Source: an uncultured Rhodospirillaceae bacterium
GTDB lineage: Bacteria > Pseudomonadota > Alphaproteobacteria > Rhodospirillales > UBA2165
NCBI GenBank assembly: GCA_964611435.1
Contig: CAZSXT010000003.1
Span: forward strand, 102,100 to 166,099
Direction of reading: 5' to 3'
DNA length: 64,000 nucleotides
The position numbers and the translations under genes were made by a program. Shown here in pieces: positions 19,872 through 55,001 of the stretch. The notes beneath the pieces were generated by a model, which saw only the letters and a list, made by a program, of their open reading frames with translations, was not told the origin of the DNA and did no database searches. Position 1 is the stretch's first letter, and each line of letters starts with the position of its first letter.

Positions 19872-19888
19872 GGCTTAGAGTCTAAGCC
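19872..19888. promoter_or_regulatory. perfect 17-bp palindrome GGCTTAGA-G-TCTAAGCC
   Basis: Seen in sequence. It overlaps the stop codon of the EutA-like gene and lies 35 bp upstream of the Rieske gene start. TTAGA/TCTAA half-sites with a 1-nt spacer. Confidence 0.45.
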
Positions 19889-21378: not shown

Positions 21379-22617
21379 TCAGGTTTGAACGTACTTCCGG
21401 TCCGGGTTCGGCGACAGATCATTGGGCGTCAAATAAAGCTCATCGCCCATCTGGGACGCACCGCCGGCAGCCGCCAGCTTTTCCTCGAACTCCCGGCGAA
21501 CGTTCGGGTCTTCCATCCAGTAGGGAATGGAGGTCCCGCCTTCGTGCAGGTCCATGCCCGTATAGTCGATCTGCGTGTCGCCAGGGGCCTTGGCCTCCAG
21601 GCTCGGATGGTTGGGGCCGAACCAGGCGGTCAGGCGGAACGGCTCCTTCGACACATTGAAATGCTGATGATACCAGCGCGCGCCGCCGGGCGCCGCCGTG
21701 ATCATCCCAACAGGCTCGTAATCCAGGCGCTGCACCTGGTCACCGTTGCCGTCCTTCCACGGCGTCGGGCCCAGACGTTCCGGCCAAGTATGGGTATAGC
21801 CCTTGCCTTTGACGCAGATCAGCACCGCCGCCGAGGTATGCGCGTGGGCCTTGGAATACTTGCCCGTATCGTGCTGACCGACCCAGAGATAGAACTTGTT
21901 GTTGGTCATGAATGGTTCGACCCGCCGCCAGCCGGGCGACCGACGGTTATCCAACGGCAGCTCGCAGTTAAAAATATCCGGCACCATATTAGTGCGCCGC
22001 ATGGCGAGCCCGCGGATCGGATCCGGCTCGATATCATCAGAGGGTTTGTAGAAATCCTCGTCGTCGGTAAACCGGTCGGTGAACTGATACGGGCAGTTGA
22101 AAACCATATCCACATTGCCCAAGAGGTTCATCAGGTTTGGCGCTGTCGTGCCCGCCAGCAACAGCGCCGGGCTGGAGGTTGCGTTAACGATCCGGTGGTA
22201 GGCGTTCACCGGGATGGAGAACAGCGAGCCGGTCTGCCACTCGAAAACATGCTTCTTGCCGCCCTCTTCCAGCCACACCTCGGTCGTGCCCCGGCCCTCG
22301 ACCACCAGGAATATTTCTTCATAGATATGCCGTTCCACATTCAGCGCGCCGGCAGCGGGGACTTCGACCACATAGCTGCCCCATTTACCCTCTGTGCCGT
22401 AAAGCTGGATGAAATGGCCGCGCCCACCCATCCGCTTCCAGTCATGCAAGGGCAGATTTTGAACCTTTTCGATGCCGAGCCCCCTGAACGTGGGAATGCC
22501 CTCCGCCTTCATGAACCGGTCATAGGTCAGCTCGGGAAACTTGAATTCGCCATAGCCGGCCCGCTGTTCCCCCGTGGGTTCGTGCCAGTGGACCATTCCG
22601 TCGAGTTCATGAGGCAT
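21379..22617 (-). CDS. bicupin metalloprotein (gentisate-dioxygenase-like superfamily; same family as 49894 and 51009)
   Basis: 412 aa. C-terminal cupin with KAHAH...G.G and WYHQHFN motifs; N-terminal cupin ERHIYEEIFLVVEGRG. Shares IEYEDQDP/IPYWMEDP and GGAS(K/Q)MG blocks with the 49.9-52.1 kb paralogs. RBS GGAGA. Confidence 0.7.
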   Translation of the reverse strand: MPHELDGMVHWHEPTGEQRAGYGEFKFPELTYDRFMKAEGIPTFRGLGIEKVQNLPLHDWKRMGGRGHFIQLYGTEGKWGSYVVEVPAAGALNVERHIYEEIFLVVEGRGTTEVWLEEGGKKHVFEWQTGSLFSIPVNAYHRIVNATSSPALLLAGTTAPNLMNLLGNVDMVFNCPYQFTDRFTDDEDFYKPSDDIEPDPIRGLAMRRTNMVPDIFNCELPLDNRRSPGWRRVEPFMTNNKFYLWVGQHDTGKYSKAHAHTSAAVLICVKGKGYTHTWPERLGPTPWKDGNGDQVQRLDYEPVGMITAAPGGARWYHQHFNVSKEPFRLTAWFGPNHPSLEAKAPGDTQIDYTGMDLHEGGTSIPYWMEDPNVRREFEEKLAAAGGASQMGDELYLTPNDLSPNPDRKYVQT

Positions 22618-22638: not shown

Positions 22639-23160
22639 CTATTGGCCGCCGAACAGCAGGCCCGGAAACACTTCATATTGCATCAATTGGCTAAACACGA
22701 TCCAGGTAAAGGCCGTGGCGGCCACCGCCGACCAGGCGCCAACCTTGACGCTTTTCCTTCCTTGGAAGACGACAAACGTTAAGACGTAAATCGGGATCGA
22801 GATCAGGAACCCGACAAAATAGACAAGGACCACAAACGCCACCGGCCAGACCATCGCCACCAGGACTTTGCGCATGGGTTGGGCGGCGACCGCTTCGCCG
22901 CTGGCTTCGCCCACGATGGTGCCGGTGAAGAACGTCTTGATCCCATTGCCGAGCGCCGTCCCCGTCGCGGCAACCAAATCGAGCACGCATAAGACGATCA
23001 GGCTCCAGCCCACCAGGACCGGCACTTGCTGTGCTTTTTGATCGTAAGTGTAGGACCACGTCAGAAAGATCACGGCAAAAGCCGACACGATAAGCGGTGG
23101 CAACAAGTTCAAGATCATCTTGTCCGAATGAGGAGAATTCATGCCCGCTGAGTCAGCCAT
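22639..23160 (-). CDS. tctB: tripartite tricarboxylate transporter small membrane subunit (TctB family)
   Basis: 173 aa, 4 TM segments, located directly after tctA. Confidence 0.75.
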   Translation of the reverse strand: MADSAGMNSPHSDKMILNLLPPLIVSAFAVIFLTWSYTYDQKAQQVPVLVGWSLIVLCVLDLVAATGTALGNGIKTFFTGTIVGEASGEAVAAQPMRKVLVAMVWPVAFVVLVYFVGFLISIPIYVLTFVVFQGRKSVKVGAWSAVAATAFTWIVFSQLMQYEVFPGLLFGGQ

Positions 23161-23163
23161 GGC

Positions 23164-24660
23164 CTACGCCTCCCGTTTCCGGTTTCGCAGCCAGCCCCGT
23201 ATCGAAGGCGACAGAATAATTAACACTGTCGCAATCAACAGAACCGCGGAAATGGGCCGTCCGTAGAAAATGGAATAGCTCCCATCGCCGATCATCATGG
23301 ATTGGTGATAGCTCCGTTCCGCCAGTTCGCCCAAAACCAAGGCAATCACCGCCGTGATGCGGGGATAATCATAGCGGATCATCAAAAACCCAATGATGCC
23401 GAAGATCATGGCGACAGCGACATCGCCCATGCTGTTGTGGAGGGCATAGACCCCGACCAGAGCCACGGCGACCACCGTCGGCGCCAGGATGTGAACATCG
23501 ACCAGGGTGATGAGAGACAGCCAGCGTGCCAAGATCAAGCCGATGATGGAGGCCAGAATCGCCGCCGAGGCGACGGCAACGATCAGGCTGAACACCACGC
23601 CTTCGTGTTCCACCAGCATCATCGGACCGGGCTCCAACCCGTGCAGGATCAGAACGCCCAGGAAAATCGCCATCTCCGCGCTGCCGGGGATGCCGAAAGC
23701 CAGGGTCGGGATCAAAGCGCCGCCGTCCTTGGCATTATTGGCGGATTCCGGCGCGATCACGCCTTGGATGTTGCCGGTGCCGAAACTTTCCGGATTCTTG
23801 GAAGCCTGCACCGTGGACGCATAAGACAGAAACGAGGCCACCGTACCGCCCACGCCCGGAATGGCGCCAATAAACGCGCCGATGGCGGAACCTCGCAGCA
23901 AGATGGGCACATTCCTGAAAACCGAGACAATACCATCGCTGACCCGGGAAATTTTCATGCTTGCGCCGTCGCCCGACACGACCCGACCGCCCTTGAGCGT
24001 CAGGTTGATCATCTCGGCGATGGCGAAGACGCCGGTCAGCGTGGGCACCAGCCGCACCCCGTCCAGCAGATACTCAACGTCTCCCGTAAACCGGTCGCCG
24101 CCATTGACCGCGTCCAGACCCACAAAGGCCAATGCTAAACCGACACCGCCGGCGATCAGCCCCCGCAGGAACTTGCCCCCGGTGGAGAGCGCAATCGCGC
24201 CGAGACCCAGGATGGCGAGGGCGAAGAACTCCGGTGGGCCAAACAGTAGAACTATTTCCTTGGCGATGGGGATCACGGCCATCAGGATCGCCACGCCCAA
24301 AATACCGCCGAGGGACGACGCCGTCGCCGCCGCGCCGATGGCCATGCCCGCTTTGCCCTGTTGGGCCAAGGGGAAACCGTCAAAACAGGTCGCCGCGTTG
24401 GGCGCAATGCCCGGGGTATTTAACAAAATTGCCGAGATCGACCCGCCGAACGCGACCGAACCCATCACCCCGCCGATAAGGGTGATCGCCTCCGCCGGCT
24501 GCATGCCAAATGTAAGCGGGATCAACAGCGCGATCGCCGTTGTGCCGCCCAATCCAGGTATCGCACCGAACACGAGGCCGATGCCCACACCCAGACATAG
24601 GTAGAGCGAGCCTTTCAGGGTGAACAGAAGTGCCAGGGCTTCTGTGGCGGATTCAAACAT
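23164..24660 (-). CDS. tctA: tripartite tricarboxylate transporter large permease (TctA family)
   Basis: 498 aa polytopic protein. ...GAIPGLGGTTAIALLIPLTF... and ...GAIPGVGGTVASFLSY... are duplicated TctA signatures. Confidence 0.9.
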   Translation of the reverse strand: MFESATEALALLFTLKGSLYLCLGVGIGLVFGAIPGLGGTTAIALLIPLTFGMQPAEAITLIGGVMGSVAFGGSISAILLNTPGIAPNAATCFDGFPLAQQGKAGMAIGAAATASSLGGILGVAILMAVIPIAKEIVLLFGPPEFFALAILGLGAIALSTGGKFLRGLIAGGVGLALAFVGLDAVNGGDRFTGDVEYLLDGVRLVPTLTGVFAIAEMINLTLKGGRVVSGDGASMKISRVSDGIVSVFRNVPILLRGSAIGAFIGAIPGVGGTVASFLSYASTVQASKNPESFGTGNIQGVIAPESANNAKDGGALIPTLAFGIPGSAEMAIFLGVLILHGLEPGPMMLVEHEGVVFSLIVAVASAAILASIIGLILARWLSLITLVDVHILAPTVVAVALVGVYALHNSMGDVAVAMIFGIIGFLMIRYDYPRITAVIALVLGELAERSYHQSMMIGDGSYSIFYGRPISAVLLIATVLIILSPSIRGWLRNRKREA

Positions 24661-24743: not shown

Positions 24744-25709
24744 CTAATTGGATTTTGCCAAGGCCGCCGGATACTTCTTGAAGATCGCCAGCGCCTTATC
24801 GACCGCGGCTTGTGTATCAGCACCGCTGAGGTGACCGAATGGCCGGCGAGTCTTCTTCGCCCAAGCTTGGGAATCCGTATCCGCAATCGCCTTGCCGACG
24901 GCATCGGACAGAATCTTGGCAATATTGGCCGGTGTGCCCGGCGCAGCCGCCACCATCCGCTCGACGCCCAGGCCGGTCAGTTCGGGATAGCCAGCTTCGG
25001 CGATTGTCGGCACACCCTTGAAGCTGGACTTCTCTTCGAAGGTGACCACGCCATGGATGTCGCCGGATTTCACGAACTTATTAAAGGTCTGTGTCGGCGC
25101 AATGCCGGCATCGCCGTCACCGCGAACCACGCCGACGATATATTGTTTCGATCCTTTGTAGCCGGTCACAAACTGCACTGGGAAACCGACCACCGTTTTA
25201 AAGATGCTCGCGCCGGTGTAGGCGGTCGAGCCAAACCCGGTGGACAGCACTTTGACGCTCCGCCCCAAGTTCTTGAGATCGGCCACGGTCTTGATGCTGC
25301 TTTTGCCGCTAACGCCGAACAGGTAGGGGCTGGTCGACATGCGCCCGACCCAAACGAATTTGGTCACGTCGAAATTGACCTTCTGGCCGGTGAGCTGCGG
25401 GATGATCGCGCCCGGCATGTTGATCACCGAAATCGTGTAGCCATCGCCGCCCGCCTTGGCGAGAAGACCATAACCTTTGCGGCCGCCGGCGCCCGGCACG
25501 TTCTTCGGCACCACATTGACCTTATTGGGCAGGTATTTGCCCATGTTCTTGGCCACCTGACGGGACGTGCTATCCATGCCGCCGCCGGGGCTGAAGGGAA
25601 TCAGAAAAGTGATGTCTTTTTCCGGAAACGCGGCTTGGGCGTTTCCAACAAATCCGGCCGCCACAAACGCAGCCGCGGTGCTTAGAATGATCTTCGATTT
25701 CATTGCCAT
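24744..25709 (-). CDS. tctC: TTT family (Bug/TctC) periplasmic solute-binding protein
   Basis: Signal peptide MAMKSKIILSTAAAFVAAGFVGNAQA, then ...FLIPFSPGGGMDSTSRQVAK...NVPGAGG... The start is set at ATG 25709 (or 25703), after GGAGGAAA. The longer track ORF overlaps the aldolase gene. Confidence 0.85.
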   Translation of the reverse strand: MAMKSKIILSTAAAFVAAGFVGNAQAAFPEKDITFLIPFSPGGGMDSTSRQVAKNMGKYLPNKVNVVPKNVPGAGGRKGYGLLAKAGGDGYTISVINMPGAIIPQLTGQKVNFDVTKFVWVGRMSTSPYLFGVSGKSSIKTVADLKNLGRSVKVLSTGFGSTAYTGASIFKTVVGFPVQFVTGYKGSKQYIVGVVRGDGDAGIAPTQTFNKFVKSGDIHGVVTFEEKSSFKGVPTIAEAGYPELTGLGVERMVAAAPGTPANIAKILSDAVGKAIADTDSQAWAKKTRRPFGHLSGADTQAAVDKALAIFKKYPAALAKSN

Positions 25710-25767
25710 TTTCCTCCGTGTTTGGCGCTGGACGAACCTCTCGTCCGCCGATTGTTCACTATAATTA

Positions 25768-25796
25768 TTAGCTAAGAATTCTAAGTAAATTTGCGG
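25768..25796. promoter_or_regulatory. operator-like site TTAGCTAAGAATTCTAAGTAAATTTGCGG (TTAGA-N2-TCTAA family)
   Basis: Seen in sequence about 60 bp upstream of tctC (minus). Core TAAGAATTCTAA. The flank TCTAAGTAAATTTG closely matches the sites at 46265 and 49841. Confidence 0.45.
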
Positions 25797-25812
25797 GCCC
25801 TCGCAATCCGAA

Positions 25813-26520
25813 TTAACGTCCGGCGCGGCGGCTGAAATATTCCCACGACCGGGTAAAGCCCGACAGGGATTCATTGCCCGCCAGGCGGCAATCGATCTCG
25901 CCGGGCGATAGGTATTCCACCTCGCCTAGACGCATGGCGTCCATCTGAAGTTTGGCGTTCACTTGCATGTAAATGGCGGTCATCACTGCATCTTCGAGGC
26001 TGGTGCCAACCACGGTCGCGCCATGCCCCCGCATCAGAATCGTCCGATTGGAGCCCAAGGCTTCGGCCAGATCATCCCCTTGCTCCACATTGACCACCAG
26101 AAGGTTGGTGTCGCCGAACTTGTCCTTGATGTCCCAGACCGGCACCTCGTGGCCGATCCGTCCTGACGTATGCGCGATCGCTTTCAAGGGCGTCTTGGTT
26201 ACGCTGAAGGGCACCACGGCGTAGGAATGGTGATGCACCACCGACATAACATCGGGCCGCGCCTTGAACATGGACGCATGGATCGGCGTCTCCAGGTATA
26301 GGTTAAACCCCTTGTTATCGATGCAATTGCTGTCCAGATCGAACTCGACGATATCTTCGGGCTCCACCAACTCCGGGCTGCGGGAGCGGGAGATGAGGAA
26401 TCGGTCCGGATTTTCCGGGTGGCGGATACTCACATGGCCGTAGCCGTCCACCACATCTTCGTGCGCCAGGATGCGGTTGGCAGTGACAAGGTTTTCGATT
26501 GCGTCTTTTAGGCTGGACAT
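25813..26520 (-). CDS. class II aldolase/adducin family protein
   Basis: 235 aa. ...DGYGHVSIRHPENPDRFLISRS..., ...VVHHHSY..., ...ILMRGHGATVVG... are family-typical motifs. Confidence 0.85.
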   Translation of the reverse strand: MSSLKDAIENLVTANRILAHEDVVDGYGHVSIRHPENPDRFLISRSRSPELVEPEDIVEFDLDSNCIDNKGFNLYLETPIHASMFKARPDVMSVVHHHSYAVVPFSVTKTPLKAIAHTSGRIGHEVPVWDIKDKFGDTNLLVVNVEQGDDLAEALGSNRTILMRGHGATVVGTSLEDAVMTAIYMQVNAKLQMDAMRLGEVEYLSPGEIDCRLAGNESLSGFTRSWEYFSRRAGR

Positions 26521-29886: not shown

Positions 29887-29899
29887 GGGATTAAGAGCT

Positions 29900-30982: not shown

Positions 30983-30995
30983 CCCAAACCTCCTA

Positions 30996-39059: not shown

Positions 39060-39134
39060 ATCTGCACAGGCCGGGGCAAGACATTGTTCGCAAACAAATG
39101 TTGCCCCGGCCTGGACCGCCAATTCGGAGGACCC

Positions 39135-42820: not shown

Positions 42821-42967
42821 CGTGATCTATGAATTCGGCAGGATATTCCCTTGGCTTCGGTTATACCTTTCAGGCCGGTTTTTTCCATAGGTTTCTCTGT
42901 ATTTTTCTTCCCGGACTTTTGTATTAGTGTTGCAATCTTGTATGACACTGAAAGAAGTCGAACCGCC

Positions 42968-43585: not shown

Positions 43586-43599
43586 GGGAGCGCCTGGCC

Positions 43600-46354: not shown

Positions 46355-47638
46355 ATGAAAGCTCTCACCAAGCTGAGCATCGTCGGCGTTGCCGGTCTCG
46401 CGGCGGGACTTGTCGCCGCCGGTCCCGTGACCGCCCAGTCGGTCGCGGATTTCTACAAAGACAAGACCATCACCATGTGGGTCGGCTACAGCGCCGGCGG
46501 CGGGTATGACACTTATGCCCGTACGGTCGCGCGGCACATGACTAAGCATGTTCCGGGCAATCCCAAGATCGTCGTGAAGAACAAGCCCGGCGCCGGCAGT
46601 ATGCTGGTCGCCAACGAGCTTTATAACACTCTGCCCAAGGACGGCACCGCCATCGGCGTGGTCGGCCGCGGCATGCCCATGGAACCACTGCTCGGAAATA
46701 AGGCCGCCAAGTTTGACGCCAGCAAATATACCTGGCTTGGCAGCGCCAATAACGAGGTCAGCGTCTGCGTCTCCTGGAAAGGCATCGGCATCGATTCCGT
46801 CGATGACATGAAGAAGAAGCAGATGACCGTTGGCGGCACCGGGCCTGGCGCCGACACGGACACGTTCCCGAAAGTTCTGAATAACGTGATTGGCACCAAG
46901 CTTAAACTGGTCACCGGCTATCCCGGCGGCACGGACGTCAACTTCGCCATGGAACGGCGGGAGTTGGGCGGACGTTGCGGTTATTCCTGGACCAGCCTGA
47001 AATCCCGCAAAGCCGACTGGCTGAAGGAAAAGAAAGTCACCGTGCTGTTGCAAATGTCGACCGAGAAACATCCGGACCTGCCGGACGTGCCGTTCATCAT
47101 GGATTTGGCCAGCAACAAGGAGGAACGGGACATCCTGTCCTTCGTCTTTGCCCGTCAGGCCTGGGGCCGGCCGTTCATGGGCCCTCCGGGCATCCCGGCC
47201 GACCGCGCCAAGGCGCTACAAACTGCGTTCATGGCGACCATGAAGGATCCGGCGTTCGTGTCTGATGCGACCAAGCAAAAGCTGGAAGTCACCCCAATCA
47301 GCGGCGCGCAGATCGAGAAGATGATCGCCGATCTCTACGCCACGCCGAAGGCCTTGGTTGAAAAAGCCAAGATCGCCACCGACAGCGATGAAAAGACCGA
47401 AATCGCCAAGGCGGTGATCCCGATCGAAACGGTCAAGGGCAAGATCACCAAACTGCGCAACGGCAACCGCCGGGTGTCCTATGCCGGTGAAGGCAAAAAG
47501 GGCAACCTGTCGGTCAGCGGCAGCAAGACCAAGGTTATGGTCGGCGGTAAGAAGACCAAGCGGAAGGCGCTGAAAGTGGGTATGGCCTGCTCCTTCACCT
47601 TCCAAGGTTCCGCTGCAAAAGAAATCAACTGCAGCTAA
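46355..47638 (+). CDS. TTT family (Bug/TctC-like) solute-binding protein with a C-terminal extension of about 95 aa
   Basis: Signal peptide, then ...WVGYSAGGGYDTYARTVARHM...NKPGAGS... is homologous to the in-window TctC (24744-25709). An extra Lys/Gly-rich beta-type tail spans about 47345-47638. Confidence 0.8.
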   Translation: MKALTKLSIVGVAGLAAGLVAAGPVTAQSVADFYKDKTITMWVGYSAGGGYDTYARTVARHMTKHVPGNPKIVVKNKPGAGSMLVANELYNTLPKDGTAIGVVGRGMPMEPLLGNKAAKFDASKYTWLGSANNEVSVCVSWKGIGIDSVDDMKKKQMTVGGTGPGADTDTFPKVLNNVIGTKLKLVTGYPGGTDVNFAMERRELGGRCGYSWTSLKSRKADWLKEKKVTVLLQMSTEKHPDLPDVPFIMDLASNKEERDILSFVFARQAWGRPFMGPPGIPADRAKALQTAFMATMKDPAFVSDATKQKLEVTPISGAQIEKMIADLYATPKALVEKAKIATDSDEKTEIAKAVIPIETVKGKITKLRNGNRRVSYAGEGKKGNLSVSGSKTKVMVGGKKTKRKALKVGMACSFTFQGSAAKEINCS

Positions 47639-47655
47639 GCCTGTACGTGAATCAA

Positions 47656-47692
47656 GGGGAACGGGTCGCCAGCCGATCCGTCTCCCCTTTTT
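47656..47692 (+). terminator. intercistronic intrinsic terminator/attenuator between the TTT receptor and permease genes
   Basis: GGGGAACGG-13 nt-CCGTCTCCCC followed by TTTTT, 18 nt after the stop codon. Confidence 0.55.
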
Positions 47693-47730
47693 CATTTTGC
47701 TCATCCCCCTGCCCCTAGGTCGGAAGACTC

Positions 47731-49791
47731 ATGGAATTTGAGATGCTCGCAATGGCCGGCAAGGCCATTGTCACCATGGCGGACCCCAGCCGGCTTATGT
47801 TCCTCGCCCTCGGCGTAATCATCGGGCTGGGTCTCGGTGTAATTCCGGGCCTGGGTGGCATCGTCGGCATGGCGTTGCTGTTGCCGTTTACGTTCAACAT
47901 CGACCCCTATTCGGCCTTTGCCCTGTTGCTGGGCATGGGATCGGTGACCACCACATCGGATACCATTCCGGCCGTCCTGTTCGGCGTGCCCGGCACCACC
48001 GGCTCGGCGGCCACCATCCTGGACGGCCACCCGCTGGCCAAGCAGGGTCAGGCGGGCCGCGCGTTCGGCGCCGCCTATACGGCGTCTTTGATCGGTGGGG
48101 TGTTCGGGGCGGCTTTGCTGGCCGTCAGCATTCCGATCCTGCGGCCGGTGCTTCTACAAGTCGGCTCTCCCGAGCTTCTGGCGTTCTCCGTCTTTGGCCT
48201 GTGTATGGTGGCTGCGCTCAGCGTCGGCAGTCCCATGCGTGGCCTGGCCGCCGCCGGCATCGGCGTGTTGTTCGCTATGGTCGGGGCCGATCCGCAGACC
48301 GCGACCCAGCGCTGGTCCTTCGGCTCGCTCTATCTGTGGGATGGGCTGTCCCTGATCCCGCTCACCCTCGGCGTCTTTGCCCTGCCGGAACTCGCCGACA
48401 TGGCGATCGAACGTCGCAGCATCGCTGGCAACTCCAAGGTGGATTCCCGTTCCGGCCAATGGCAAGGAATCAAGGACACATTCAAACACTGGTGGCTGGT
48501 CATTCGCGTGGCCTGGCTGGGCGCCGGCCTGGGTGCGGTGCCCGGCATCGGCGCCGCCGTCATCGACTGGATCGCCTATGGCCACGCCGCCCGCACGGAA
48601 AAAGGCGCAGAGGAAACCTTCGGCAAGGGCGACATCCGGGGCGTGCTGGCGTCCGAAGGCTCCAACAACGCCAAAGAGGGCGGCGCGCTGGTGCCGACCA
48701 TTGCGTTCGGCGTGCCGGGTTCGGCCTCTATGGCGATTCTTCTGGGCGCATTCTTGATCCACGGATTGCAGCCCGGCCCGGACATGCTGTCCAAGAACCT
48801 GGATGTCACTTACGCGATTATCTGGAGCGTGGCGCTGGCCAATATCCTGGGCGCCGGAATTTGCTTCGCCTTTTCCAACCAGTTCGCCAAGGTCGCCCTG
48901 ATCCGCCAGCCCGTGATCATGCCGCTGATCCTGGTGGTGATTATGATCGGCGCGTTCCAGGCGACCCGGAATTGGGGCGATTTGATCGCGGTGTTGCTGT
49001 TCGGGCTGTTGGGCTGGGTGATGAAGCGCCTGGGCTGGCCGCGCCCGCCGCTGATTCTGGGCTTCGTACTGGGCGGCATCGTCGAGCGCTATCTGTTTAT
49101 CTCCTACAATCGCTACGCCTGGGACTGGCTGTCGCACCCGGTGGTGCTGATCCTGTTCGCCCTGGCGGTTCTGGGATTCGTCCGGCCGCTGGTCCGGGAA
49201 TATAAGGAAGCCGGTGGGCTCGGTGGTTTGGCGTCGGGCTATACCATGTGTGCGCGGATCGACTGGAACACCGCGTTCTACGGTATTTTTATTTTCGGCA
49301 TTTATATACTGACGCTCTTGGCCTTGTTCTGGCGGTTCGATGCGCAGCTGGTGCCCATTGTGGTCGGCATCTTCACCATGTCGGTCCTGCTGCTGAGCTT
49401 CCTCAACCACACTTTCCGGCTGCCCGGCGTCGGGGTGAAACACACGGACGCCGGCGGGCGGGTGCGGGCGCGACTCCGCCTGGACCTCAGCGCCGACAAC
49501 AGCTCGACCGAAAAACAGGTGATCGCCAAGCGCGCAACCGGCTTCCTGATCTGGCTCGGCGTGTTCTTGGGCCTGATCGCCGTCATCGGCATGCTGCCGA
49601 CGATCTTCGTCTTCGTGACAGCCTATATGTGGTTCGAGGGACGGGAGCCCTGGAAACTGTCGCTCCCGGTCTCCGCCGCGTTGACGATTTTCTGTTACAT
49701 TCTGTTCGATCAGGTCCTGTCCCTGCCCTGGCCCGACACATTGCTGGGCTGGTGGTTGCCGGAACTCAAAACCATCATTCCGTCGATCTAG
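47731..49791 (+). CDS. TTT transporter permease, TctA fused to a C-terminal TctB-like domain
   Basis: 686 aa. The first 495 aa or so align with in-window TctA (GVIPGLGGIVGMALLLPFTF...). The last 190 aa or so (from about 49216) have 4 TM segments and align with in-window TctB (...FVFVTAYMWFEGREPWKLS... against ...YVLTFVVFQGRKSVKVG...). Confidence 0.85.
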   Translation: MEFEMLAMAGKAIVTMADPSRLMFLALGVIIGLGLGVIPGLGGIVGMALLLPFTFNIDPYSAFALLLGMGSVTTTSDTIPAVLFGVPGTTGSAATILDGHPLAKQGQAGRAFGAAYTASLIGGVFGAALLAVSIPILRPVLLQVGSPELLAFSVFGLCMVAALSVGSPMRGLAAAGIGVLFAMVGADPQTATQRWSFGSLYLWDGLSLIPLTLGVFALPELADMAIERRSIAGNSKVDSRSGQWQGIKDTFKHWWLVIRVAWLGAGLGAVPGIGAAVIDWIAYGHAARTEKGAEETFGKGDIRGVLASEGSNNAKEGGALVPTIAFGVPGSASMAILLGAFLIHGLQPGPDMLSKNLDVTYAIIWSVALANILGAGICFAFSNQFAKVALIRQPVIMPLILVVIMIGAFQATRNWGDLIAVLLFGLLGWVMKRLGWPRPPLILGFVLGGIVERYLFISYNRYAWDWLSHPVVLILFALAVLGFVRPLVREYKEAGGLGGLASGYTMCARIDWNTAFYGIFIFGIYILTLLALFWRFDAQLVPIVVGIFTMSVLLLSFLNHTFRLPGVGVKHTDAGGRVRARLRLDLSADNSSTEKQVIAKRATGFLIWLGVFLGLIAVIGMLPTIFVFVTAYMWFEGREPWKLSLPVSAALTIFCYILFDQVLSLPWPDTLLGWWLPELKTIIPSI

Positions 49792-49840
49792 GGCAGCAGT
49801 TTAGAAGTGGTTTTCAATCAGGGGACAGACTTTATACTGG

Positions 49841-49864
49841 TTAGAAATCTAAGTAATTTTGACG
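49841..49864. promoter_or_regulatory. operator-like site TTAGAAATCTAAGTAATTTTGACG (TTAGA-N2-TCTAA family) overlapping a possible -35 box
   Basis: Seen 30 bp upstream of the first bicupin gene. TTGACG is at the 3' end of the site. It is the closest match to the sites at 25768, 32034 (reverse) and 46265. Confidence 0.45.
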
Positions 49865-49893
49865 TAACACCAGCAGGGGAATAGTGGCGAACC

Positions 49894-50997
49894 ATGTCGA
49901 AAGCTGACGAAGCACGGTTTCTGTATGATCCGTATCAGGAGTGGGTAAAGGGCGAAGGCGTGCCCGTGGTCGAGGACTTCGGCATCGACCTGATCAAGGT
50001 GGAAACCAAGCCCTGGGCCCGGTTCGACACCAACGGCGCCATCGCCCATCTGAAGGGCCGGGGCGACTTTATTTCGATCTTCATCATCGATATTCCGCCG
50101 GGCGGTAAATCGTCGCCCCAGCAGCATGTCTTTGAAGAGGTGATCTACGTCCTGGAAGGACATGGCAGCACCACGGTCGAAACCCATGACGGGCGCAAGC
50201 ACAGCTTCGAATGGGGTCCGCAGAGCCTGTTCGCCCTGCCCTTGAACGCCAAGTATCAGCACTTCAACGGCAGCGGGCGGGAGCCGGCGCGCCTCTCCTC
50301 CACCAACAGCCTCTGCGTCATGCAGAACCTGTTCCACAACGATAAATTCATCTTCGACAATCCGTATCGCTTCCCCGAACGGGAAGGCACGGAAACGGCC
50401 TTCTCCGGCGAGGGTGAGTTCATTCCGAAACGCCCGGGCCGGCATATGTGGGAGACCAACTTCGTTCCCGACCTGTCGAGCTTCAAGCTGCGCAAATGGT
50501 CCAAGCGGGGCGCGGGCGGCTCCAACATGATGTTCGTGCTGGCCGACGGCTCCATGCACGCTCATATGTCGGAAATGCCGGTCGGCACCTACAAGAAAGC
50601 CCACCGCCACGGCGCGGACTTCCATGTGTTCTGCGTCACTGGCACCGGTTATTCGCTTCTGTGGTACGAGGAAGAGGACGATTACGTGCGGGTCGATTGG
50701 CAGCACGGCGTGGTCTTCGCCCCGCCGGATGGCATGTATCACCAGCATTTCAATTCCAGCGCCGATCCGGCCCGCTATTTGGCCATTGCCTTCGGCGGCC
50801 TGCGCTATCCCATGACCGAGGCCAAGCGACGGGTGTTTATGGGCATGGACGTCAATGTCCGCGACGGCGGCGCGCAGATCGAATACGAGGATCAGGACCC
50901 GCGCATCCACAAAATCTACCTGGACGAACTGGCCAAGCATGGCGGCGCGTCCAAGATGGGCGAATTCATCGACGAAGCGCCGTTCGTGAAGGCTTAG
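49894..50997 (+). CDS. bicupin metalloprotein, copy 1 of a tandem pair
   Basis: 367 aa. N-cupin GGKSSPQQHVFEEVIYVLEGHG; C-cupin GTYKKAHRHGADFHVFCVTGTG and PPDGMYHQHFN (canonical PxGxxHxxxN). Confidence 0.75.
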   Translation: MSKADEARFLYDPYQEWVKGEGVPVVEDFGIDLIKVETKPWARFDTNGAIAHLKGRGDFISIFIIDIPPGGKSSPQQHVFEEVIYVLEGHGSTTVETHDGRKHSFEWGPQSLFALPLNAKYQHFNGSGREPARLSSTNSLCVMQNLFHNDKFIFDNPYRFPEREGTETAFSGEGEFIPKRPGRHMWETNFVPDLSSFKLRKWSKRGAGGSNMMFVLADGSMHAHMSEMPVGTYKKAHRHGADFHVFCVTGTGYSLLWYEEEDDYVRVDWQHGVVFAPPDGMYHQHFNSSADPARYLAIAFGGLRYPMTEAKRRVFMGMDVNVRDGGAQIEYEDQDPRIHKIYLDELAKHGGASKMGEFIDEAPFVKA

Positions 50998-51008
50998 GGG
51001 AGACCATC

Positions 51009-52118
51009 ATGGCCGATAAGGAAGAAGCCCGCTTTTTATTCGATCCTTATATGGACTGGGTCGAGCGGCAAGGCATCCCCGTGGTCGAGGATTTCGGCGT
51101 CGATCTGTTGAAAGTCGAAACCAAGCCCTGGGCCTCCATGGGCTGCGACGGCGCGATCGTGCACCTGAAGGGGCGCGGCGATTTTATCTCCATCTTCGTG
51201 GTGGACCTGCCGCCGGGTGGTCAAACCTCGCCGCAACAGCACTTGTTCGAGGAAGTCATCTATGTGCTGGACGGCCATGGCAGTACGACGATTGAGACCG
51301 AGGACGGCCAGAAACACAGTTTCGAATGGGGCCCCAAAAGCCTCTTCGCCCTGCCCCTGAACGCAAAATATCAGCACTTCAACGCCAGCGGACAGGAACG
51401 CGCCCGGCTATCGGCCACCAACGATCTCTGCCTGGTGTTGAACCTGTTCCACAATGAAGATTTCATCTTCAACAACGATTTCCGCTTCCCGGAGCGGGAG
51501 GGCACGTCCAACTATTTCGCCGGCGAAGGGGAACTGATCCCCAAGCGGCCCGGCCGACACATGTGGGAAACCAATTTCGTCCCCGATCTGTCGAAGTTCG
51601 AGTTGCGCACCTGGGACAAGCGCGGCGCCGGCAGCTCCAACATGAAATTCATCCTGGCGGACGGCACCATGCATGCGCATTCGTCGGAAATGCCTGTTGG
51701 CACCTACAAGAAAGCCCACCGCCACGGCGCGGACTTCCATGTCTATAGCGTCACCGGCGGCGGCTATTCACTGCTCTGGTACGAAGAGGACGAGGATTTC
51801 GTCCGCATCGACTGGCAGCACGGCGTGGTCTTCGCCCCACCGGACATGATGTATCACCAGCATTACAACACCAGCACGGTGCCCAGCCGGTATCTGGCCG
51901 TGGCGCTGGGTAGCCTGCGCTATCCGTTCACCCAGGAAAAGATGGACCTGTTCATGGGCGTCGATGTCAGCGTCAAGGACGGCGGCCGCCAGATCGAATA
52001 CGAGGATCAGGACCCGCGCATTCATCAGATCTATCTGGATGAGCTGGAGAAAAACGGCGTCGAGTCCGGCATGGCCGAGATAATCGACGAAGCGCCCTAC
52101 GTCAAGAAAACCGCATAA
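51009..52118 (+). CDS. bicupin metalloprotein, copy 2 of a tandem pair
   Basis: 369 aa from ATG 51009 (RBS GGGGAG). Colinear and highly similar to copy 1 (KAHRHGADFHVYSVTGGG, PPDMMYHQHYN). The longer track ORF from 50448 is an out-of-gene extension. Confidence 0.75.
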   Translation: MADKEEARFLFDPYMDWVERQGIPVVEDFGVDLLKVETKPWASMGCDGAIVHLKGRGDFISIFVVDLPPGGQTSPQQHLFEEVIYVLDGHGSTTIETEDGQKHSFEWGPKSLFALPLNAKYQHFNASGQERARLSATNDLCLVLNLFHNEDFIFNNDFRFPEREGTSNYFAGEGELIPKRPGRHMWETNFVPDLSKFELRTWDKRGAGSSNMKFILADGTMHAHSSEMPVGTYKKAHRHGADFHVYSVTGGGYSLLWYEEDEDFVRIDWQHGVVFAPPDMMYHQHYNTSTVPSRYLAVALGSLRYPFTQEKMDLFMGVDVSVKDGGRQIEYEDQDPRIHQIYLDELEKNGVESGMAEIIDEAPYVKKTA

Positions 52119-52130
52119 CCGGCGCTATCC

Positions 52131-53723
52131 ATGCACGAACTCGGTTTCGATCACGTCCATCCGTCGGAAGAGGAACGGGAACAGCTCAGCGACGCCATCT
52201 GGTCCGTCGATAATGTGGAGTTCACCACCGTCGGCGTGGATGTAGGCTCTTCCACGTCCCACCTCATGTTCGCCAAAGTGCACCTGCAGCGCCTGGCGGA
52301 GGCCTTGTCCAGCCGTTTCGTCGTGGTCGGCCGGGAAATCCTCTGGCGCTCCCCTATTCTGCTGACCCCCTACCGGTCCGACTACACCATTGATGCGGAG
52401 GAGCTGGGCCTGTTCATCGACAACGCCTACACCTCCGCCGGATTGCAGCGGGATGATATCGACTCCGGCGCAGTCATATTGACCGGCGAAGCGCTGAAGC
52501 GCACCAATGCGCGGGCCATCGCCGATCTGTTCGCCGCCGAGAGCGGCAAGTTTGTCTGCGCGTCGGCCGGACATAACCTCGAAGCCTTGATGGCGGCCCA
52601 CGGGTCCGGCGCGGTGGAGCTCTCCCGACAGGAACATAAGACCTTCCTCAACATCGACATCGGTGGCGGCACCACCAAGTTTGCGCTCGTTCACGGCGGC
52701 CGGCTCTTGGAAAGCGCGGCGGTGGCGGTCGGCGGGCGGCTGGTCGCGCTGGACGACGACGGGAGCCTGGTGCGGATCGAGGAACCGGCGGAACGCATGG
52801 CCGACGCTGCCGGCGTTACCCTCGAATTGGGCCAAAAGCTCTCGGTTGGCGACCGGGAAAAGCTCGTCGCCACCATGATCGATGTGCTGATCCGCTCCAT
52901 CGCCCGGGAAGCCCCGGACGCGCTGATCAACGATCTGATCCTCACGCCGGCGCTGCCCACCGACATCAAAATCGATGCGGTGACCTTCTCCGGCGGCGTC
53001 TCCGAATACGTGTTCGGCCGGGAAACCGTGGATCACGGCGATCTCGGCGGGGATATTGCCGCCGGCGTGACCGAGGCCCTGAAAGACGGGCGCATCCCCT
53101 ATCCGGTCTATGATCCGGGCCAGGGCATTCGCGCCACCGTGGTCGGCGCGTCGCAGTTCTCCGTACAGGTCAGCGGCAACACCATCCATATCAGCCGCCC
53201 GGACCTGCTGCCCATCCGCAACGTGCCGGTGATCCGGCTCGGTCTGGCGCTGGACGGCGAGATCGACTCTGATGCTGTCTCCGAAGACATCCAAAAGAGC
53301 TTCAACCGGTTCGATATTGATCCGAAAGAAACCGCCACGGCGCTGGCCTTCACCTGGGACGGCGAACCCGCCTATCAACGCCTGTTCGCCCTGGCCAAGG
53401 GCATCCGCGACGGCTATGCGGACACCATTGCCGCCGGCCACGCGGTGATCCTGGTGATGGAAGGCGATGTGGCGAAGACCATGGGCAATCTGCTGATGAA
53501 AGAACTGGACGTACCCGGCGATATTATCTCGCTGGACGGCGTGCAGTTGCGGGAATTCGACTATATCGATGTGGGCGAACTGGTGCAGCCGGCCAATGTC
53601 GCGCCGCTGATCATCAAGTCGCTGCTGTTCACTGCCGACGACCGGCATGGTGATGACGGCCATCATCAGCACGACCATGATCACTCTCACGAGCATGATC
53701 ATGAGCACCATCATCACGATTGA
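52131..53723 (+). CDS. EutA-like ASKHA-fold ATPase with a His-rich C-terminal tail
   Basis: 530 aa. VGVDVGSSTSHLMF, ...IDSGAVILTGEALKRTNARAI..., FLNIDIGGGTTKFAL, ...YIDVGELV...APLIIKSLLF. The tail is DDRHGDDGHHQHDHDHSHEHDHEHHHHD. Paralog of 19882-21366. Confidence 0.75.
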   Translation: MHELGFDHVHPSEEEREQLSDAIWSVDNVEFTTVGVDVGSSTSHLMFAKVHLQRLAEALSSRFVVVGREILWRSPILLTPYRSDYTIDAEELGLFIDNAYTSAGLQRDDIDSGAVILTGEALKRTNARAIADLFAAESGKFVCASAGHNLEALMAAHGSGAVELSRQEHKTFLNIDIGGGTTKFALVHGGRLLESAAVAVGGRLVALDDDGSLVRIEEPAERMADAAGVTLELGQKLSVGDREKLVATMIDVLIRSIAREAPDALINDLILTPALPTDIKIDAVTFSGGVSEYVFGRETVDHGDLGGDIAAGVTEALKDGRIPYPVYDPGQGIRATVVGASQFSVQVSGNTIHISRPDLLPIRNVPVIRLGLALDGEIDSDAVSEDIQKSFNRFDIDPKETATALAFTWDGEPAYQRLFALAKGIRDGYADTIAAGHAVILVMEGDVAKTMGNLLMKELDVPGDIISLDGVQLREFDYIDVGELVQPANVAPLIIKSLLFTADDRHGDDGHHQHDHDHSHEHDHEHHHHD

Positions 53724-53753
53724 GGCCCGCGCCGAAGCGGGCCATAATCCAGC

Positions 53754-55001
53754 ATGACCACGGCAACCCAAACCCTCGCCCATGATGGACGGGTCCTCGG
53801 CCTGATCGGTGCGGGACACCTGCTCAGCCATTTCTATCAATATACGTTTCCCGCGCTGATCCTGTATTGGAGTGTCGAGATGGGCGTCTCCTACGCCGCG
53901 CTCGGCCTGGTCATGACCCTGTTCGCGCTGTCGACCGGGATCGCGCAGATGCCGGCCGGCATGCTGGTGGACCGCTACGGCGCCCGGCCGGTCCTGGTTA
54001 TCGGCCTGTTGATCACCGCCGGGGCCATGGCCTATATGTCGCGTTCCGACGGGATGGAGATGATCTACGTCCTGGCCGTCATCGCCGGCGTCGGCAACAG
54101 CGTGTTTCACCCGGCGGATTATGTGATCCTCAATTCCTCCATCGATCCGAGCCGCATGGGCAAAGCCTTCAGCCTGCACACCTTCAGCGGCCATTTGGGC
54201 AGCGCCTTCGCCCCGGCGACCATCATTTTCCTCGCCACGCTCCAGGACTGGCGGTTTGCGCTTTTGACCACGGGCCTATTGGGCGTCGCCGTGGCGCTTG
54301 TGGTGTTCCTGCAGGGCGGCATCCTGCAGGATGATCAGGTCGCCAAAAAGGCCGAGGCCGAGGACGGCAGAAAAAGGAACGACGGGACAGGTCTGGGGGC
54401 CAGTTTCAGACTGATGATGTCTAAAAACATGCTGCTGTTTTTCCTGTTCTTTATGTTTGCCTCGCTCTCATCCGGCGGAGTGCAGAGCATGTCCGTGGTG
54501 GCGCTGGTGGACCTGCACGGCATCGACCAGATCAGCGCCGGCACAGCCTTGACCTTCTTCCTGTTCGCCAGCGCGACGGGCATTCTTTTAGGCGGCGTGG
54601 CGGCGGATAAATTCGACCGCCACGACCGGATCGCCGGGGGCTGCTTCGGCGTTTCCGCGCTGATCTTTGCCGGCGTCGCCACCTGGATCTTGCCGGCCGC
54701 CGTGATCATCTTCGTCTTCACCATCGCCGGGCTGGCCCAGGGCATGATCCGCCCGGCCCGGGACATGATGGTCCGCGCTGTCGCGCCCAAAGGCGCCGCC
54801 GGCCGGGCCTTCGCCTTTACCTCAATGGGCATCGCCTTCGGCAGCGGCGTCGCGCCGGTGTTCTTCGGCTATCTGGTGGATCAGGGGGCCAGCAACTGGC
54901 TGTTCTGGCTGCTGGTCGGCTTCAACATCATCGCCATTGGCACGATCCTCGGCCAGGGCGACATCTCGGCGAAGTCTGAGGCGAAGAAGGCTGAGGGTTA
55001 G
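53754..55001 (+). CDS. MFS transporter
   Basis: 415 aa, 12 predicted TM segments, with the loop motif ...GMLVDRYGARPV... between TM2 and TM3. Confidence 0.85.
   Translation: MTTATQTLAHDGRVLGLIGAGHLLSHFYQYTFPALILYWSVEMGVSYAALGLVMTLFALSTGIAQMPAGMLVDRYGARPVLVIGLLITAGAMAYMSRSDGMEMIYVLAVIAGVGNSVFHPADYVILNSSIDPSRMGKAFSLHTFSGHLGSAFAPATIIFLATLQDWRFALLTTGLLGVAVALVVFLQGGILQDDQVAKKAEAEDGRKRNDGTGLGASFRLMMSKNMLLFFLFFMFASLSSGGVQSMSVVALVDLHGIDQISAGTALTFFLFASATGILLGGVAADKFDRHDRIAGGCFGVSALIFAGVATWILPAAVIIFVFTIAGLAQGMIRPARDMMVRAVAPKGAAGRAFAFTSMGIAFGSGVAPVFFGYLVDQGASNWLFWLLVGFNIIAIGTILGQGDISAKSEAKKAEG

Follow-up and report, generated by a model that had tools for sequence, protein, structure and literature searches.

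A bicupin family encoded beside EutA-like ATPases in TTT-linked gene clusters: a candidate ATP-driven metallocentre chaperone or reactivase system

Which client is served by a EutA-like ATPase that is encoded directly beside bicupin genes? The question is raised by the window, a 64,000-nucleotide stretch of DNA from an uncultured Rhodospirillaceae bacterium, which contains two such arrangements. The first cluster (46355-55001, forward strand) begins with the TctC-type periplasmic solute receptor of TTT system 1 (46355..47638; Pfam TctC, E 9e-11, residues 55-338 of 427), which has approximately 90 additional C-terminal residues past the TctC domain, and a fused TctA-TctB permease (47731..49791; Pfam TctA, E 9e-129, residues 22-443, and TctB, E 2e-11, residues 521-668). 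These are followed by bicupin A (49894..50997, 367 aa), its tandem paralog bicupin B (51009..52118, 369 aa, 75% identity to bicupin A) and, after a gap of 12 nt, the 530-aa EutA-like ATPase 1 (52131..53723; Pfam EutA, E 5e-118, full length). The final gene of this co-directional cluster encodes an MFS transporter (53754..55001; Pfam MFS_1, E 3e-45) with weak NCBIfam matches to the PgtP, GlpT and oxalate/formate types, which by its sequence looks like an organic-anion transporter and not a metal carrier; an MFS gene is also found directly 3' of the EutA-like gene in loci L006, L007, L010, L026 and L028, and one gene farther in L019.

The second cluster (16524-25874) is located on the reverse strand, and consists of a TctC receptor (24744..25874; Pfam TctC, E 3e-22), for which the real start codon is probably inside the listed open reading frame, the TctA permease 2 (23164..24660; Pfam TctA, E 8e-127) and TctB 2 (22639..23160; Pfam TctB, E 6e-8), followed by bicupin C (21379..22617, 412 aa), a member of a diverged subfamily with only ~30% identity to bicupin A, and the 494-aa EutA-like ATPase 2 (19882..21366; Pfam EutA, E 3e-111), which is 44% identical to EutA-like 1. 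The same operon continues with a LigXa-like Rieske oxygenase (18554..19837; Pfam Rieske and LigXa_C) and a PdxA-family dehydrogenase (17541..18530; Pfam PdxA, E 1e-72), and ends with a 4,5-dihydroxyphthalate-decarboxylase-like protein (16524..17519; PDB 9jp7, E 1e-65). Genes for a TTT transporter are thus directly 5' of both bicupin/EutA-like sets (46355-49791 and 22639-25874). Reading of the ORFs and translations, together with the Pfam matches, bore out the preliminary description with regard to the reading frames, motifs and 12-nt spacing of the first cluster, as well as the second bicupin/EutA-like set at 19882-22617 downstream of TTT genes.

Pfam EutA (PF06277) covers both ATPases end to end, with residues 31-500 of EutA-like 1 (A1) aligned to profile positions 3-474 of 475, and A1 is 32% identical to E. 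coli EutA (b2451) in an alignment which begins at residue 26. The motifs DVGSSTSH, NIDIGGGTTK and SGGVSEY were read from the translations, and the phosphate-1, phosphate-2 and adenosine motifs are intact, with D37/G39/T42, D176/G178-G180/T181 and S287-G289/E292 invariant in A1. Matches on the kinase/hydantoinase side (MreB, FtsA, BadF/BcrAD) are weak and partial, and both ATPases are ASKHA proteins, not NTPases of the P-loop G3E or MinD-type fold. The claim that the 530-aa protein is colinear with EutA stands, and the profile-HMM check proposed alongside it assigned the ATPases to EutA and to no other ASKHA family, and the bicupins to the generic Cupin_2 and Cupin_1 families.

Such a match, and the RefSeq name of the Phyllobacterium ortholog ('ethanolamine ammonia-lyase reactivating factor EutA'), are what would be expected of an ordinary EutA serving an ethanolamine ammonia-lyase encoded elsewhere, with the adjacency to cupins a coincidence. 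However, both ATPases score far under the cut-offs of all four NCBIfam EutA equivalog models, the best being NF007992 (342 and 308 bits vs 598) with the three remaining models scoring lower; the clade has its own N-terminal extension; and the window contains two diverged copies, each with its own bicupin. A tblastn search of the 64-kb window with E. coli EutB and EutC gave no match, as the preliminary description had stated, and EutB or EutC was found in 0/84 related loci (flanks up to 10 kb), versus a bicupin in 69/84. The ordinary-EutA reading is close to refuted, and the database label EutA, that of a B12 enzyme repair factor, is wrong for the bicupin-paired ATPase.

The 84-locus survey also gives the positive side of this picture. 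The EutA-like proteins of the survey are 48-75% identical, and 69 loci contain the bicupin family; nearly always, the bicupin gene directly adjoins that of the EutA-like protein, with both on one strand and in either order. The paired loci come from the Alpha-, Beta-, Gamma- and Deltaproteobacteria, Chloroflexota, Acidobacteriota and Actinomycetota, and span at least six phyla. For the bicupin C subfamily, the EutA-like gene is the next gene in 7/7 extra contexts around bicupin C homologs. Gene content around the pair varies: Marinobacter manganoxydans has a minimal operon (tctA-tctB-eutA-like-bicupin-tctC), while in Xanthobacteraceae the pair is found alone amid unrelated genes, and there is no cupin within 10 kb of the EutA-like gene in the SAR202 loci L035 and L037, nor in L029 and L018. 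Of at least 574 genomic matches, the survey took in the 80 best, and remoter members of the clade may hence behave differently. Pairwise distances of the two partners covary over 71 adjacent pairs (r 0.74, Mantel p 0.001), paralogous pairs of the same genome have diverged in step, and a single incomplete record (P0334) contains an in-frame bicupin-EutA-like fusion. Occurrence in 69/84 independent loci is far beyond chance, and comparative genomics, including the seven bicupin C contexts, strongly supports the earlier proposal that bicupin and EutA-like ATPase form a conserved functional couple, unrelated to eutBC; the neighbourhood survey suggested with that proposal showed adjacency conserved across phyla, with eutBC unlinked in every locus examined. 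We found no published account of this unit.

With regard to the bicupins themselves, A, B and C have Pfam matches to the generic Cupin_2 and Cupin_1 models only, and the PDB matches of bicupin A are likewise at the level of generic bicupins. AF2 models contain two cupin barrels (pLDDT 81.5 for bicupin A and 80.8 for bicupin C), and Foldseek retrieves OxdC, MncA and vicilins with them at E ~1e-17. The C-terminal barrel contains the canonical cupin motif 1, G(x)5HxH(x)3-4[EH](x)6G, and motif 2, PxGxxHxxxN (AHRHGADFH...GTG and PPDGMYHQHFN in the translations), and the putative metal site of bicupin A is made up of H237, H239, H244, H283 and H285; of these, H237 and H239 are invariant, H283 and H285 nearly so, and H244 is kept in at least 80% of sequences. 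The N-terminal barrel has an incomplete site, in which Q replaces the first His and the His of motif 2 is not conserved. Gentisate 1,2-dioxygenase, OxdC, MncA and quercetinase are likewise two-barrel cupins with the motif 1 and 2 His ligands in one barrel, but the bicupins described here are only 12-14% identical to known bicupins (TM ~0.48) and have their His cluster in the C-terminal barrel; no described bicupin is known to depend on an ATPase. A family match of the gentisate 1,2-dioxygenase type was not found, matches being partial and at cupin level only (3bu7, E 1.6e-7, over short stretches), and the NCBIfam 5-aminosalicylate dioxygenase model scored 26 bits vs a cut-off of 650. The three proteins belong to a new bicupin family, which at 50% identity comprises more than 500 clusters. 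In locus L095 a hydrolase, an HpcH/HpaI aldolase and an Amidohydro_2 gene are found downstream with no further ring-cleavage gene, and ring-cleavage-type genes are missing from many other loci.

Strict adjacency and co-diversification of the partners would also fit an obligate ATP-dependent enzyme, in which the EutA-like ASKHA protein would be the catalytic or energising subunit acting with the bicupin, and might phosphorylate or activate a carboxylate, or power a ring reaction at the cupin metal that would otherwise be unfavourable. It would resemble ATP-dependent carboxylases in which a metal subunit works with an ATPase of the ASKHA type, and the ASKHA superfamily includes many kinases. The fusion P0334 and the minimal operon of transporter and pair only are consistent with it, as is the frequency of (de)carboxylase neighbours, with UbiD in 19 loci and dihydroxyphthalate-decarboxylase-like homologs in ~24/84. 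We nevertheless consider it rather unlikely: the ATPase shows full-length colinear homology to the protein-remodelling EutA and not to the kinase or hydantoinase branches, the His-rich arms and tails described below have no obvious part in substrate phosphorylation, and up to four bicupin paralogs accompany one ATPase gene. In the window, as in loci L001, L003, L004, L011, L019 and L026, a single EutA-like gene accompanies 2-4 bicupin paralogs in tandem, a ratio typical of an accessory factor.

The EutA-like clade has a His-rich N-terminal extension, a segment which E. coli EutA lacks. In EutA-like 1 this arm reads MHELGFDHVHPSEEE... (52131..52205); its alphaproteobacterial form is MH[DE]..F[DE]H.H, a simple test of the protein start found MH[DE] in 102/120 close homologs, and EutA-like proteins of other phyla have His-rich N-terminal counterparts. 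EutA-like 2 starts with ...GRIFFSN... and is without the arm, while bicupin C has an N-terminal His arm of its own, MPHELDGMVHWHEP (22576-22617, reverse strand), with the motif M(P)H[DE]...HWHEP present in 109/120 homologs; AF2 confidence is low for this arm (residues 1-30). The two placements are complementary: in bicupin A/B-type pairs the ATPase has at least three His at its N-terminus (66/67), whereas the arm of bicupin C-type pairs belongs to the bicupin and the ATPase has none (8/8). The extension and its complementary placement are new observations. EutA-like 1 also ends in a His/Asp-rich tail, RHGDDGHHQHDHDHSHEHDHEHHHHD (53643..53720), and about one in four of the 120 closest homologs has a His-rich C-terminal tail, mostly the nearest ones; such tails can be functionless stretches of low complexity. 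Putative metal-transporter genes neighbour only ~10% of loci: NicO lies directly 3' of the ATPase gene in L015, L016, L017, L020 and L032 (in L016 followed by two monocupins), a putative HupE/UreJ metal transporter is encoded in L089, and a YjbE/TerC-type metal transport protein at the Phyllobacterium plasmid locus. Curated Ni/Co transporter models match this NicO-like protein only weakly.

These occasional neighbours, together with the complementary arms and the His-rich tails, lend circumstantial support to the proposed loading or exchange of metal by the ATPase. Cupins are prone to mis-metalation, and MncA, studied in that connection, is among the fold matches. The EutA-family ATPase could instead be a reactivase that is independent of metal, opening the bicupin to free a dead-end product, an inhibitor or a damaged organic cofactor, or acting in folding or assembly, with the His segments incidental or regulatory. 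Membership of the EutA family is in line with this, as is linkage to several easily inactivated enzyme types, with the UbiD decarboxylase gene directly upstream of the ATPase gene in some loci; but we regard it as improbable, as the complementary His arm and recurrent poly-His tails are hard to explain without metal binding, and the metal site of the cupin is of the classical His-cluster kind.

We favour, at a probability of about 0.5, a reading from sequence in which the ATPase is an ATP-driven metallocentre chaperone or reactivase for the new bicupin family, in TTT-linked carboxylate or aromatic catabolism. The EutA-like protein would then be an accessory ATPase dedicated to its neighbouring bicupins, not a reactivase of ethanolamine ammonia-lyase. 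The flexible N-terminal X-His-Asp/Glu...H.H arm, on the ATPase in A/B-type pairs and on the bicupin in C-type pairs, would capture a divalent metal, aided in many members by the C-terminal poly-His tail; ATP binding and hydrolysis by the ASKHA core would pry open the C-terminal cupin barrel, and the H237/H239/H244/H283/H285 cluster would receive the right metal, or have a wrong or oxidised metal exchanged, much as EutA replaces damaged cobalamin in the enzyme it serves. Catalysis would fall to the bicupins, whose substrate would carry a carboxylate, would probably be aromatic or cyclic, and would enter through the linked TTT transporter; in the second cluster this substrate would also be handled by the Rieske oxygenase, the PdxA-type dehydrogenase and the dihydroxyphthalate-decarboxylase-like enzyme. 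Physical contact between ATPase and bicupin, the handling of metal and the bicupin chemistry are what we infer from this arrangement, with Ni or Co weakly favoured as the metal.

This scheme shares features with several known systems. Like E. coli EutA, the ATPase is a colinear member of the same Pfam family with ASKHA nucleotide motifs and a gene beside its presumed client, although that client is a bicupin and not EutBC, no B12 enzyme is linked, scores are below the NCBIfam cut-offs, and there is a His arm on the ATPase or its partner, often with a poly-His tail. The DdrAB/PduGH diol and glycerol dehydratase reactivases and GlmL/MutL are also ASKHA-type ATPases which remodel a specific neighbouring enzyme and exchange a spent cofactor, but they serve B12 enzymes, belong to other Pfam families and lack His-rich segments. 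HypA/HypB, UreE/UreG, CooC/CooJ and the nitrile hydratase activators have His-rich tails, are NTP-driven and are encoded beside a client metalloenzyme, sometimes with Ni/Co permease genes in the same cluster, and HypA binds Ni via its N-terminal Met-His-Glu motif, an X-His-Glu-type motif similar to the arm described here. The ATPases surveyed are likewise encoded beside their presumed client, in 69/84 loci and 7 bicupin C-type contexts, and the pairs have a conserved His-rich N-terminal segment that may bind metal; there is no sequence homology, however, and the fold is ASKHA (actin/Hsp70-like) instead of a G3E P-loop GTPase or zinc-ribbon. Most known metallochaperones are P-loop NTPases and not ASKHA proteins, which counts against a chaperone. 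XylT-type ferredoxins are likewise dedicated accessories which keep an adjacent ring-cleavage-type metalloenzyme active, but XylT is a small [2Fe-2S] reductant, and the XylT-like re-reduction of the cupin metal raised in the preliminary description is unsupported because the ATPase has no redox cofactor motif.

It is possible, although we hold it only tentatively, that this is the first metallochaperone based on an ASKHA EutA-family ATPase, with an X-His-Asp/Glu...HxH arm on either partner delivering Ni(II), Co(II) or another divalent metal to a previously unrecognised bicupin family. Members of that family occur widely among bacteria of marine and soil habitats, SAR202 and deep-ocean Rhodospirillales among them, and if the proposal is true, the metal specificity of cupins could be enforced by an energy-dependent insertase.

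The bicupin and EutA-like genes are organised in two clusters on opposite strands, and the open reading frames read in the window agree exactly with the layout in the preliminary description, including the cupin and ASKHA motifs, which are present in the translations. Cluster 1 (+ strand) encodes a TctC receptor (46355-47638), a 686 aa TctA-TctB fusion permease (47731-49791), the two-barrel cupin proteins bicupin A (367 aa, 49894-50997) and bicupin B (369 aa, 75% identity to A, 51009-52118), the ASKHA ATPase EutA-like 1 (530 aa, 52131-53723, starting 12 nt past bicupin B) and an MFS transporter (53754-55001), with intergenic gaps of 11-102 nt from TctC through MFS. Cluster 2 (- strand) consists of TctC, TctA and TctB in that order (25874-22639), bicupin C (412 aa, ~30% identity to A, 22617-21379) and EutA-like 2 (494 aa, 44% identity to EutA-like 1, 21366-19882), with a LigXa-type Rieske oxygenase downstream, then a PdxA-family dehydrogenase and a dihydroxyphthalate-decarboxylase-like protein (16524-17519, E 1e-65 against the solved 4,5-dihydroxyphthalate decarboxylase 9jp7). 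In both clusters (51009-53723 on the + strand, 19882-22617 on the - strand) the bicupin and the next EutA-like gene share a reading frame and are divided by only one stop codon and 3-4 codons, which is not general, as the gene pair of the related locus L087 overlaps by 4 nt. The cluster 1 TctC has ~90 Lys/Gly-rich residues past its TctC domain, with the terminus ...ACSFTFQGSAAKEINCS, and the fused TctA-TctB permease was also found in the related loci L001, L003, L016 and L024. A promoter and terminator scan of the cluster gave counts no higher than in shuffles, and a near-identity DNA search of plasmids with 46-56 kb of the window gave zero matches.

Both ATPases match the Pfam EutA family (PF06277) along the full length of its profile (E 5e-118 and 3e-111), with only marginal, partial matches to other ASKHA families, and this profile-HMM check therefore places them in the EutA family and not in a different ASKHA family. 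Their nucleotide motifs are invariant, and the ATPases are 32% identical to E. coli EutA, in an alignment beginning at residue 26 of EutA-like 1; a sequence search of the PDB found no EutA-family structure, only marginal matches to MreB. The best NCBIfam EutA equivalog model scores 342 and 308 bits versus a cut-off of 598, with the other three models lower, and tblastn with E. coli EutB and EutC (NC_000913.3) gave zero matches in the 64 kb, as the preliminary description had already noted for eutB and eutC. By homology the ATPases are members of the Pfam EutA family, but they lack two features that define EutA itself, the equivalog score and the eutBC linkage, and should not be classed as EutA.

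For the proposed survey of genome neighbourhoods, an alignment of the EutA-like clade was compared with one genome per GTDB species, and the best 80 of at least 574 loci (48-75% identity) were combined with four loci added through exact look-ups (n=84). These span the Alpha-, Beta-, Gamma- and Deltaproteobacteria, Chloroflexota (including SAR202), Vicinamibacteria and Actinomycetota, with Marinobacter manganoxydans, M. denitrificans and Terripilifer ovatus among the cultured hosts. A member of the bicupin family is present in 69/84 loci, and EutB or EutC in none (0/84, tblastn), so that both the adjacency and the lack of linked eutBC extend beyond this genome to several phyla; that the ATPases are bona fide EutA proteins serving an ethanolamine ammonia-lyase encoded elsewhere is effectively excluded. 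The bicupin nearly always adjoins the EutA-like gene directly and on the same strand, in one of two gene orders: bicupin-then-ATPase prevails in the closer relatives, and ATPase-then-bicupin is found in many Hyphomicrobiales and Betaproteobacteria. Commonly, two to four tandem bicupin paralogs share one ATPase gene. In M. manganoxydans the operon is pared down to tctA-tctB-eutA-like-bicupin-tctC, and in Xanthobacteraceae the pair stands alone among unrelated genes. A conserved 367 aa protein upstream of the Xanthobacteraceae pair was considered as a third component and rejected, being a secreted protein (signal peptide) without Pfam family that is confined to this one lineage.

Several of the 15/84 bicupin-free loci are contig ends. 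Others belong to a marine Rhodospirillaceae group (L016, L017, L032 and others) with UbiD, EutA-like, NicO and two monocupins (124 and 139 aa) in this order; as these monocupins lie just past NicO, the UbiD loci were ruled out as a sign of a non-cupin client, and the association with cupins persists in this group without a bicupin. In L016 (8441-13063) UbiD is directly upstream of the EutA-like gene, and the genes downstream encode, in turn, a directly adjoining NicO-like membrane protein, the two small monocupins, RidA, an ornithine-cyclodeaminase-like and a dihydroxyphthalate-decarboxylase-like protein; L015, L017, L020, L021, L024, L027 and L032 share parts of this arrangement. The ATPase may have more than one kind of client. 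A nearby cupin is missing from just four of the 84 loci: L035 and L037 of SAR202, L029 and L018. L035 and L037 (SAR202/Dehalococcoidia, ~10001-11480) are an exception to the pairing: their EutA-like protein has a His/Asp-rich N-terminus, its gene neighbours are glutamyl-tRNA synthetase-like and shikimate-dehydrogenase-like genes, and cupins are absent within 10 kb.

The pairing also holds for the bicupin C subfamily (1845 matches, the top 120 at least 66% identical), where an EutA-like gene is immediately downstream of the bicupin C homolog in 7/7 contexts examined (Roseibium marinum, Labrenzia sp. OB1, a Gemmatimonas MAG, the metagenome contigs L089, L094 and L095, and the metagenome locus L090); a metagenome scan with EutA-like 2 returned three loci only. 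Over 71 adjacent pairs, bicupin distances are correlated with those of the partner ATPases (r 0.74, Mantel p 0.001), and where a genome has paralogous pairs, both members have diverged together; shared phylogeny accounts for part of this. In the truncated database protein P0334 (599 aa) a bicupin C-type bicupin is fused in frame to an EutA-like N-terminus, which is weak evidence as it is a single record. The bicupin/EutA-like module is a real, conserved and widespread two-component unit. The tight linkage and the fusion would accord with an obligate ATP-consuming enzyme of which ATPase and bicupin are the two subunits, but this sits less easily with one ATPase gene for several bicupins and with the His-rich segments, and we consider it unlikely.

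These His-rich segments are found on one partner or the other. Members of the EutA-like clade are extended at the N-terminus by ~25 residues that are absent from E. coli EutA, and in the alphaproteobacterial ATPases this arm reads MH[DE]..F[DE]H.H[PM]; by a simple check of the first residues, MH[DE] starts 102/120 close homologs, and most exceptions are mis-called starts. The arm differs in other lineages and is still His/Asp-rich, for instance LHGDHQHGHSHMHEE in Marinobacter, HFHD-type in Betaproteobacteria, HEGHDHDHDD-type in Chloroflexota and HDHHAEADGHDHDH in an actinobacterium. In pairs of the bicupin A/B type the arm of the ATPase contains three or more His (66/67), and the bicupin N-terminus has no His arm, the few seeming cases being translated upstream non-coding sequence. 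In bicupin C-type pairs it is the bicupin which starts with M(P)H[DE]...HWHEP (109/120 homologs), and the ATPase lacks the arm and begins ...GGR[IVL]FF[ST]N... in all 8/8 pairs (the window, L087-L090 and L093-L095). One motif per pair, on either partner, argues for the bicupin and ATPase working as a complex. Following the rules of N-terminal processing, Met would be retained in MH[DE] and removed in MPH[DE], and we infer that both (example arm peptides MHELGFDHVHP and (M)PHELDGMVHWHEP) would expose an NH2-X-His-Asp/Glu end, resembling the Met-His-Glu nickel site of HypA. The AF2 model of bicupin C has low confidence for the N-terminal residues 1-30 containing the arm, and is therefore uninformative on its docking.

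A C-terminal tail is found in EutA-like 1, which ends in RHGDDGHHQHDHDHSHEHDHEHHHHD; similar tails occur in about a quarter of the 120 closest homologs and in most of the 20 closest, and a 596 aa paralog in L089 has an extreme form. This paralog is of a third EutA-like subtype, which reaches 596 aa and has a long His/Asp-rich N-terminus (L089 15517-18558, L010 1-1464, L077 7587-9137, and L091); in L089 its poly-His C-tail is HHGHSHSHDHEHEHGHSHAHHHPHDHDHDHSHDDGHDHSHKHDK, and its gene and that of a 373 aa bicupin from yet another subfamily are divergently transcribed. Putative metal transporters are encoded in a minority of loci: NicO immediately 3' of the ATPase gene in L015, L016, L017, L020 and L032 (Pfam 39 bits, above threshold, with weak likeness to curated Ni/Co transporter models), HupE/UreJ in L089, and a YjbE/TerC-type 'putative metal transport protein' in the Phyllobacterium locus. 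The MFS transporter downstream of EutA-like 1 was rejected as a metal importer, since it looks to be of the organic-anion type.

In the best-supported model, to which we give a probability of roughly 0.5, the EutA-like protein would serve the bicupin as its dedicated accessory ATPase, assembling the metal centre or exchanging or repairing it. Metal handling in the ATPase/bicupin unit would fall to the His arm and tail, and the client bicupin would be opened by ATP-driven remodelling of the EutA type. The analysis establishes homology, linkage, co-diversification and the distribution of motifs; that the proteins form a complex and bind metal, which metal this is, and what the enzyme catalyses are inferred. 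Such a protein would share its working principle and fold with the B12-enzyme reactivases EutA, DdrAB and GlmL, and its principle and His-rich hallmarks with the NTP-dependent Ni/Co metallochaperones HypAB, UreEG, CooC and the nitrile hydratase activators. A reactivase or foldase acting independently of metal seems improbable. We rate the module as a putative enzyme-specific, ATP-dependent maturation or reactivation factor, and it could represent a new class of metallochaperone.

The bicupins themselves form a large family: an exhaustive HMM search returned 555 clusters (50% identity) with E <= 1e-30, rising to 1655 with E <= 1e-10, and some of the 90%-identity clusters have hundreds to thousands of member sequences, named 'hypothetical protein' or generic cupin at source. 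Their Pfam matches are to generic cupin families only, and the family profile has cupin-level matches only in the PDB (auxin-binding protein 1e-7, gentisate 1,2-dioxygenase fragments 1.6e-7). The AlphaFold model of bicupin A is a two-barrel bicupin (pLDDT 81.5, pTM 0.85), with oxalate decarboxylase, MncA and seed vicilins as best Foldseek matches (12-14% identity, TM ~0.48); bicupin A has no close characterised relative, and these searches, showing generic cupin/bicupin likeness, did not reveal the chemistry. Most conserved residues are in the C-terminal barrel (Y233, K235, H237, H239, W257, H283, Q284, H285 and R294, with H244 kept in at least 80% of sequences), and the site in the N-terminal barrel is incomplete.

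The window looks like a catabolic island for carboxylated aromatic compounds, with two TctA/TctB/TctC (TTT) systems, two LigXa-type Rieske oxygenases, a flavin aromatic hydroxylase, several further cupins, a diverged UbiD-family protein (7747-9144, +) and a second dihydroxyphthalate-decarboxylase-like protein (39084-40124, +, 50% identity to the first). Further second copies (40429-41700, -, and 42851-44151, +) include the second Rieske oxygenase and two small cupins. A 360 aa bicupin with two Cupin_2 matches (29900-30982, -) is flanked within 29041-31997 by a TauD/TfdA-family dioxygenase and an ornithine-cyclodeaminase/mu-crystallin protein, has no EutA-like partner, and resembles the 353 aa cupin heading the multi-bicupin clusters of L001 and L003. 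Genes for PF14518 haem-oxygenase-like proteins ('iron-containing redox enzyme'; L001 1452-2207, L003 997-1740, L004 1-1589) head clusters in which a single NMT1-like protein and a single EutA-like gene accompany three or four bicupins in tandem. Genes that recur near the pair in the related loci encode TctC, TctA and TctB, UbiD decarboxylases (in 19 loci) and dihydroxyphthalate-decarboxylase-like proteins (in ~24), as well as SDRs, TPP enzymes, class II aldolases and MFS carriers. Downstream of the pair in L095 come Amidohydro_2, an HpcH/HpaI aldolase and an alpha/beta hydrolase, and a ring-cleavage gene other than the bicupin is absent, as expected if the bicupin were a ring-cleaving oxygenase; since this hint is confined to L095, the bicupin may be either an oxygenase or an OxdC-like decarboxylase/lyase. 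A literature search on how 4,5-dihydroxyphthalate decarboxylase works turned up no useful information.

We found no description of a cupin/EutA-like system among 7.7 million PMC papers and 0.34 million bioRxiv preprints, and the module is undescribed in this literature and at present mis-annotated as ethanolamine-related. In the one ortholog checked in RefSeq, on Phyllobacterium zundukense plasmid NZ_CP104971.1 (469795-472597), the ATPase goes under 'ethanolamine ammonia-lyase reactivating factor EutA', and its bicupin partner under 'hypothetical protein'. Homologs bear similar names in JGI and GenBank, which makes systematic mis-annotation in many genomes likely, and calls of ethanolamine utilisation from this gene are probably wrong in many alpha-, beta- and gammaproteobacteria and Chloroflexota. 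The module can be tested in cultured hosts (Marinobacter manganoxydans, Roseibium marinum, Labrenzia sp. OB1, Phyllobacterium zundukense and Sinorhizobium species). Cupins are promiscuous in the metals they bind, and the way in which cells supply them with the correct one is an open problem, to which an ATP-driven partner of their own, if true, would be a new answer; it would also stretch the reactivase concept past B12 enzymes. The bicupin family is found in TTT-linked catabolic islands alongside UbiD, dihydroxyphthalate-decarboxylase-like and Rieske enzymes, and this setting suggests that carboxylated aromatic or alicyclic organic matter is turned over through a step that has so far gone unrecognised.
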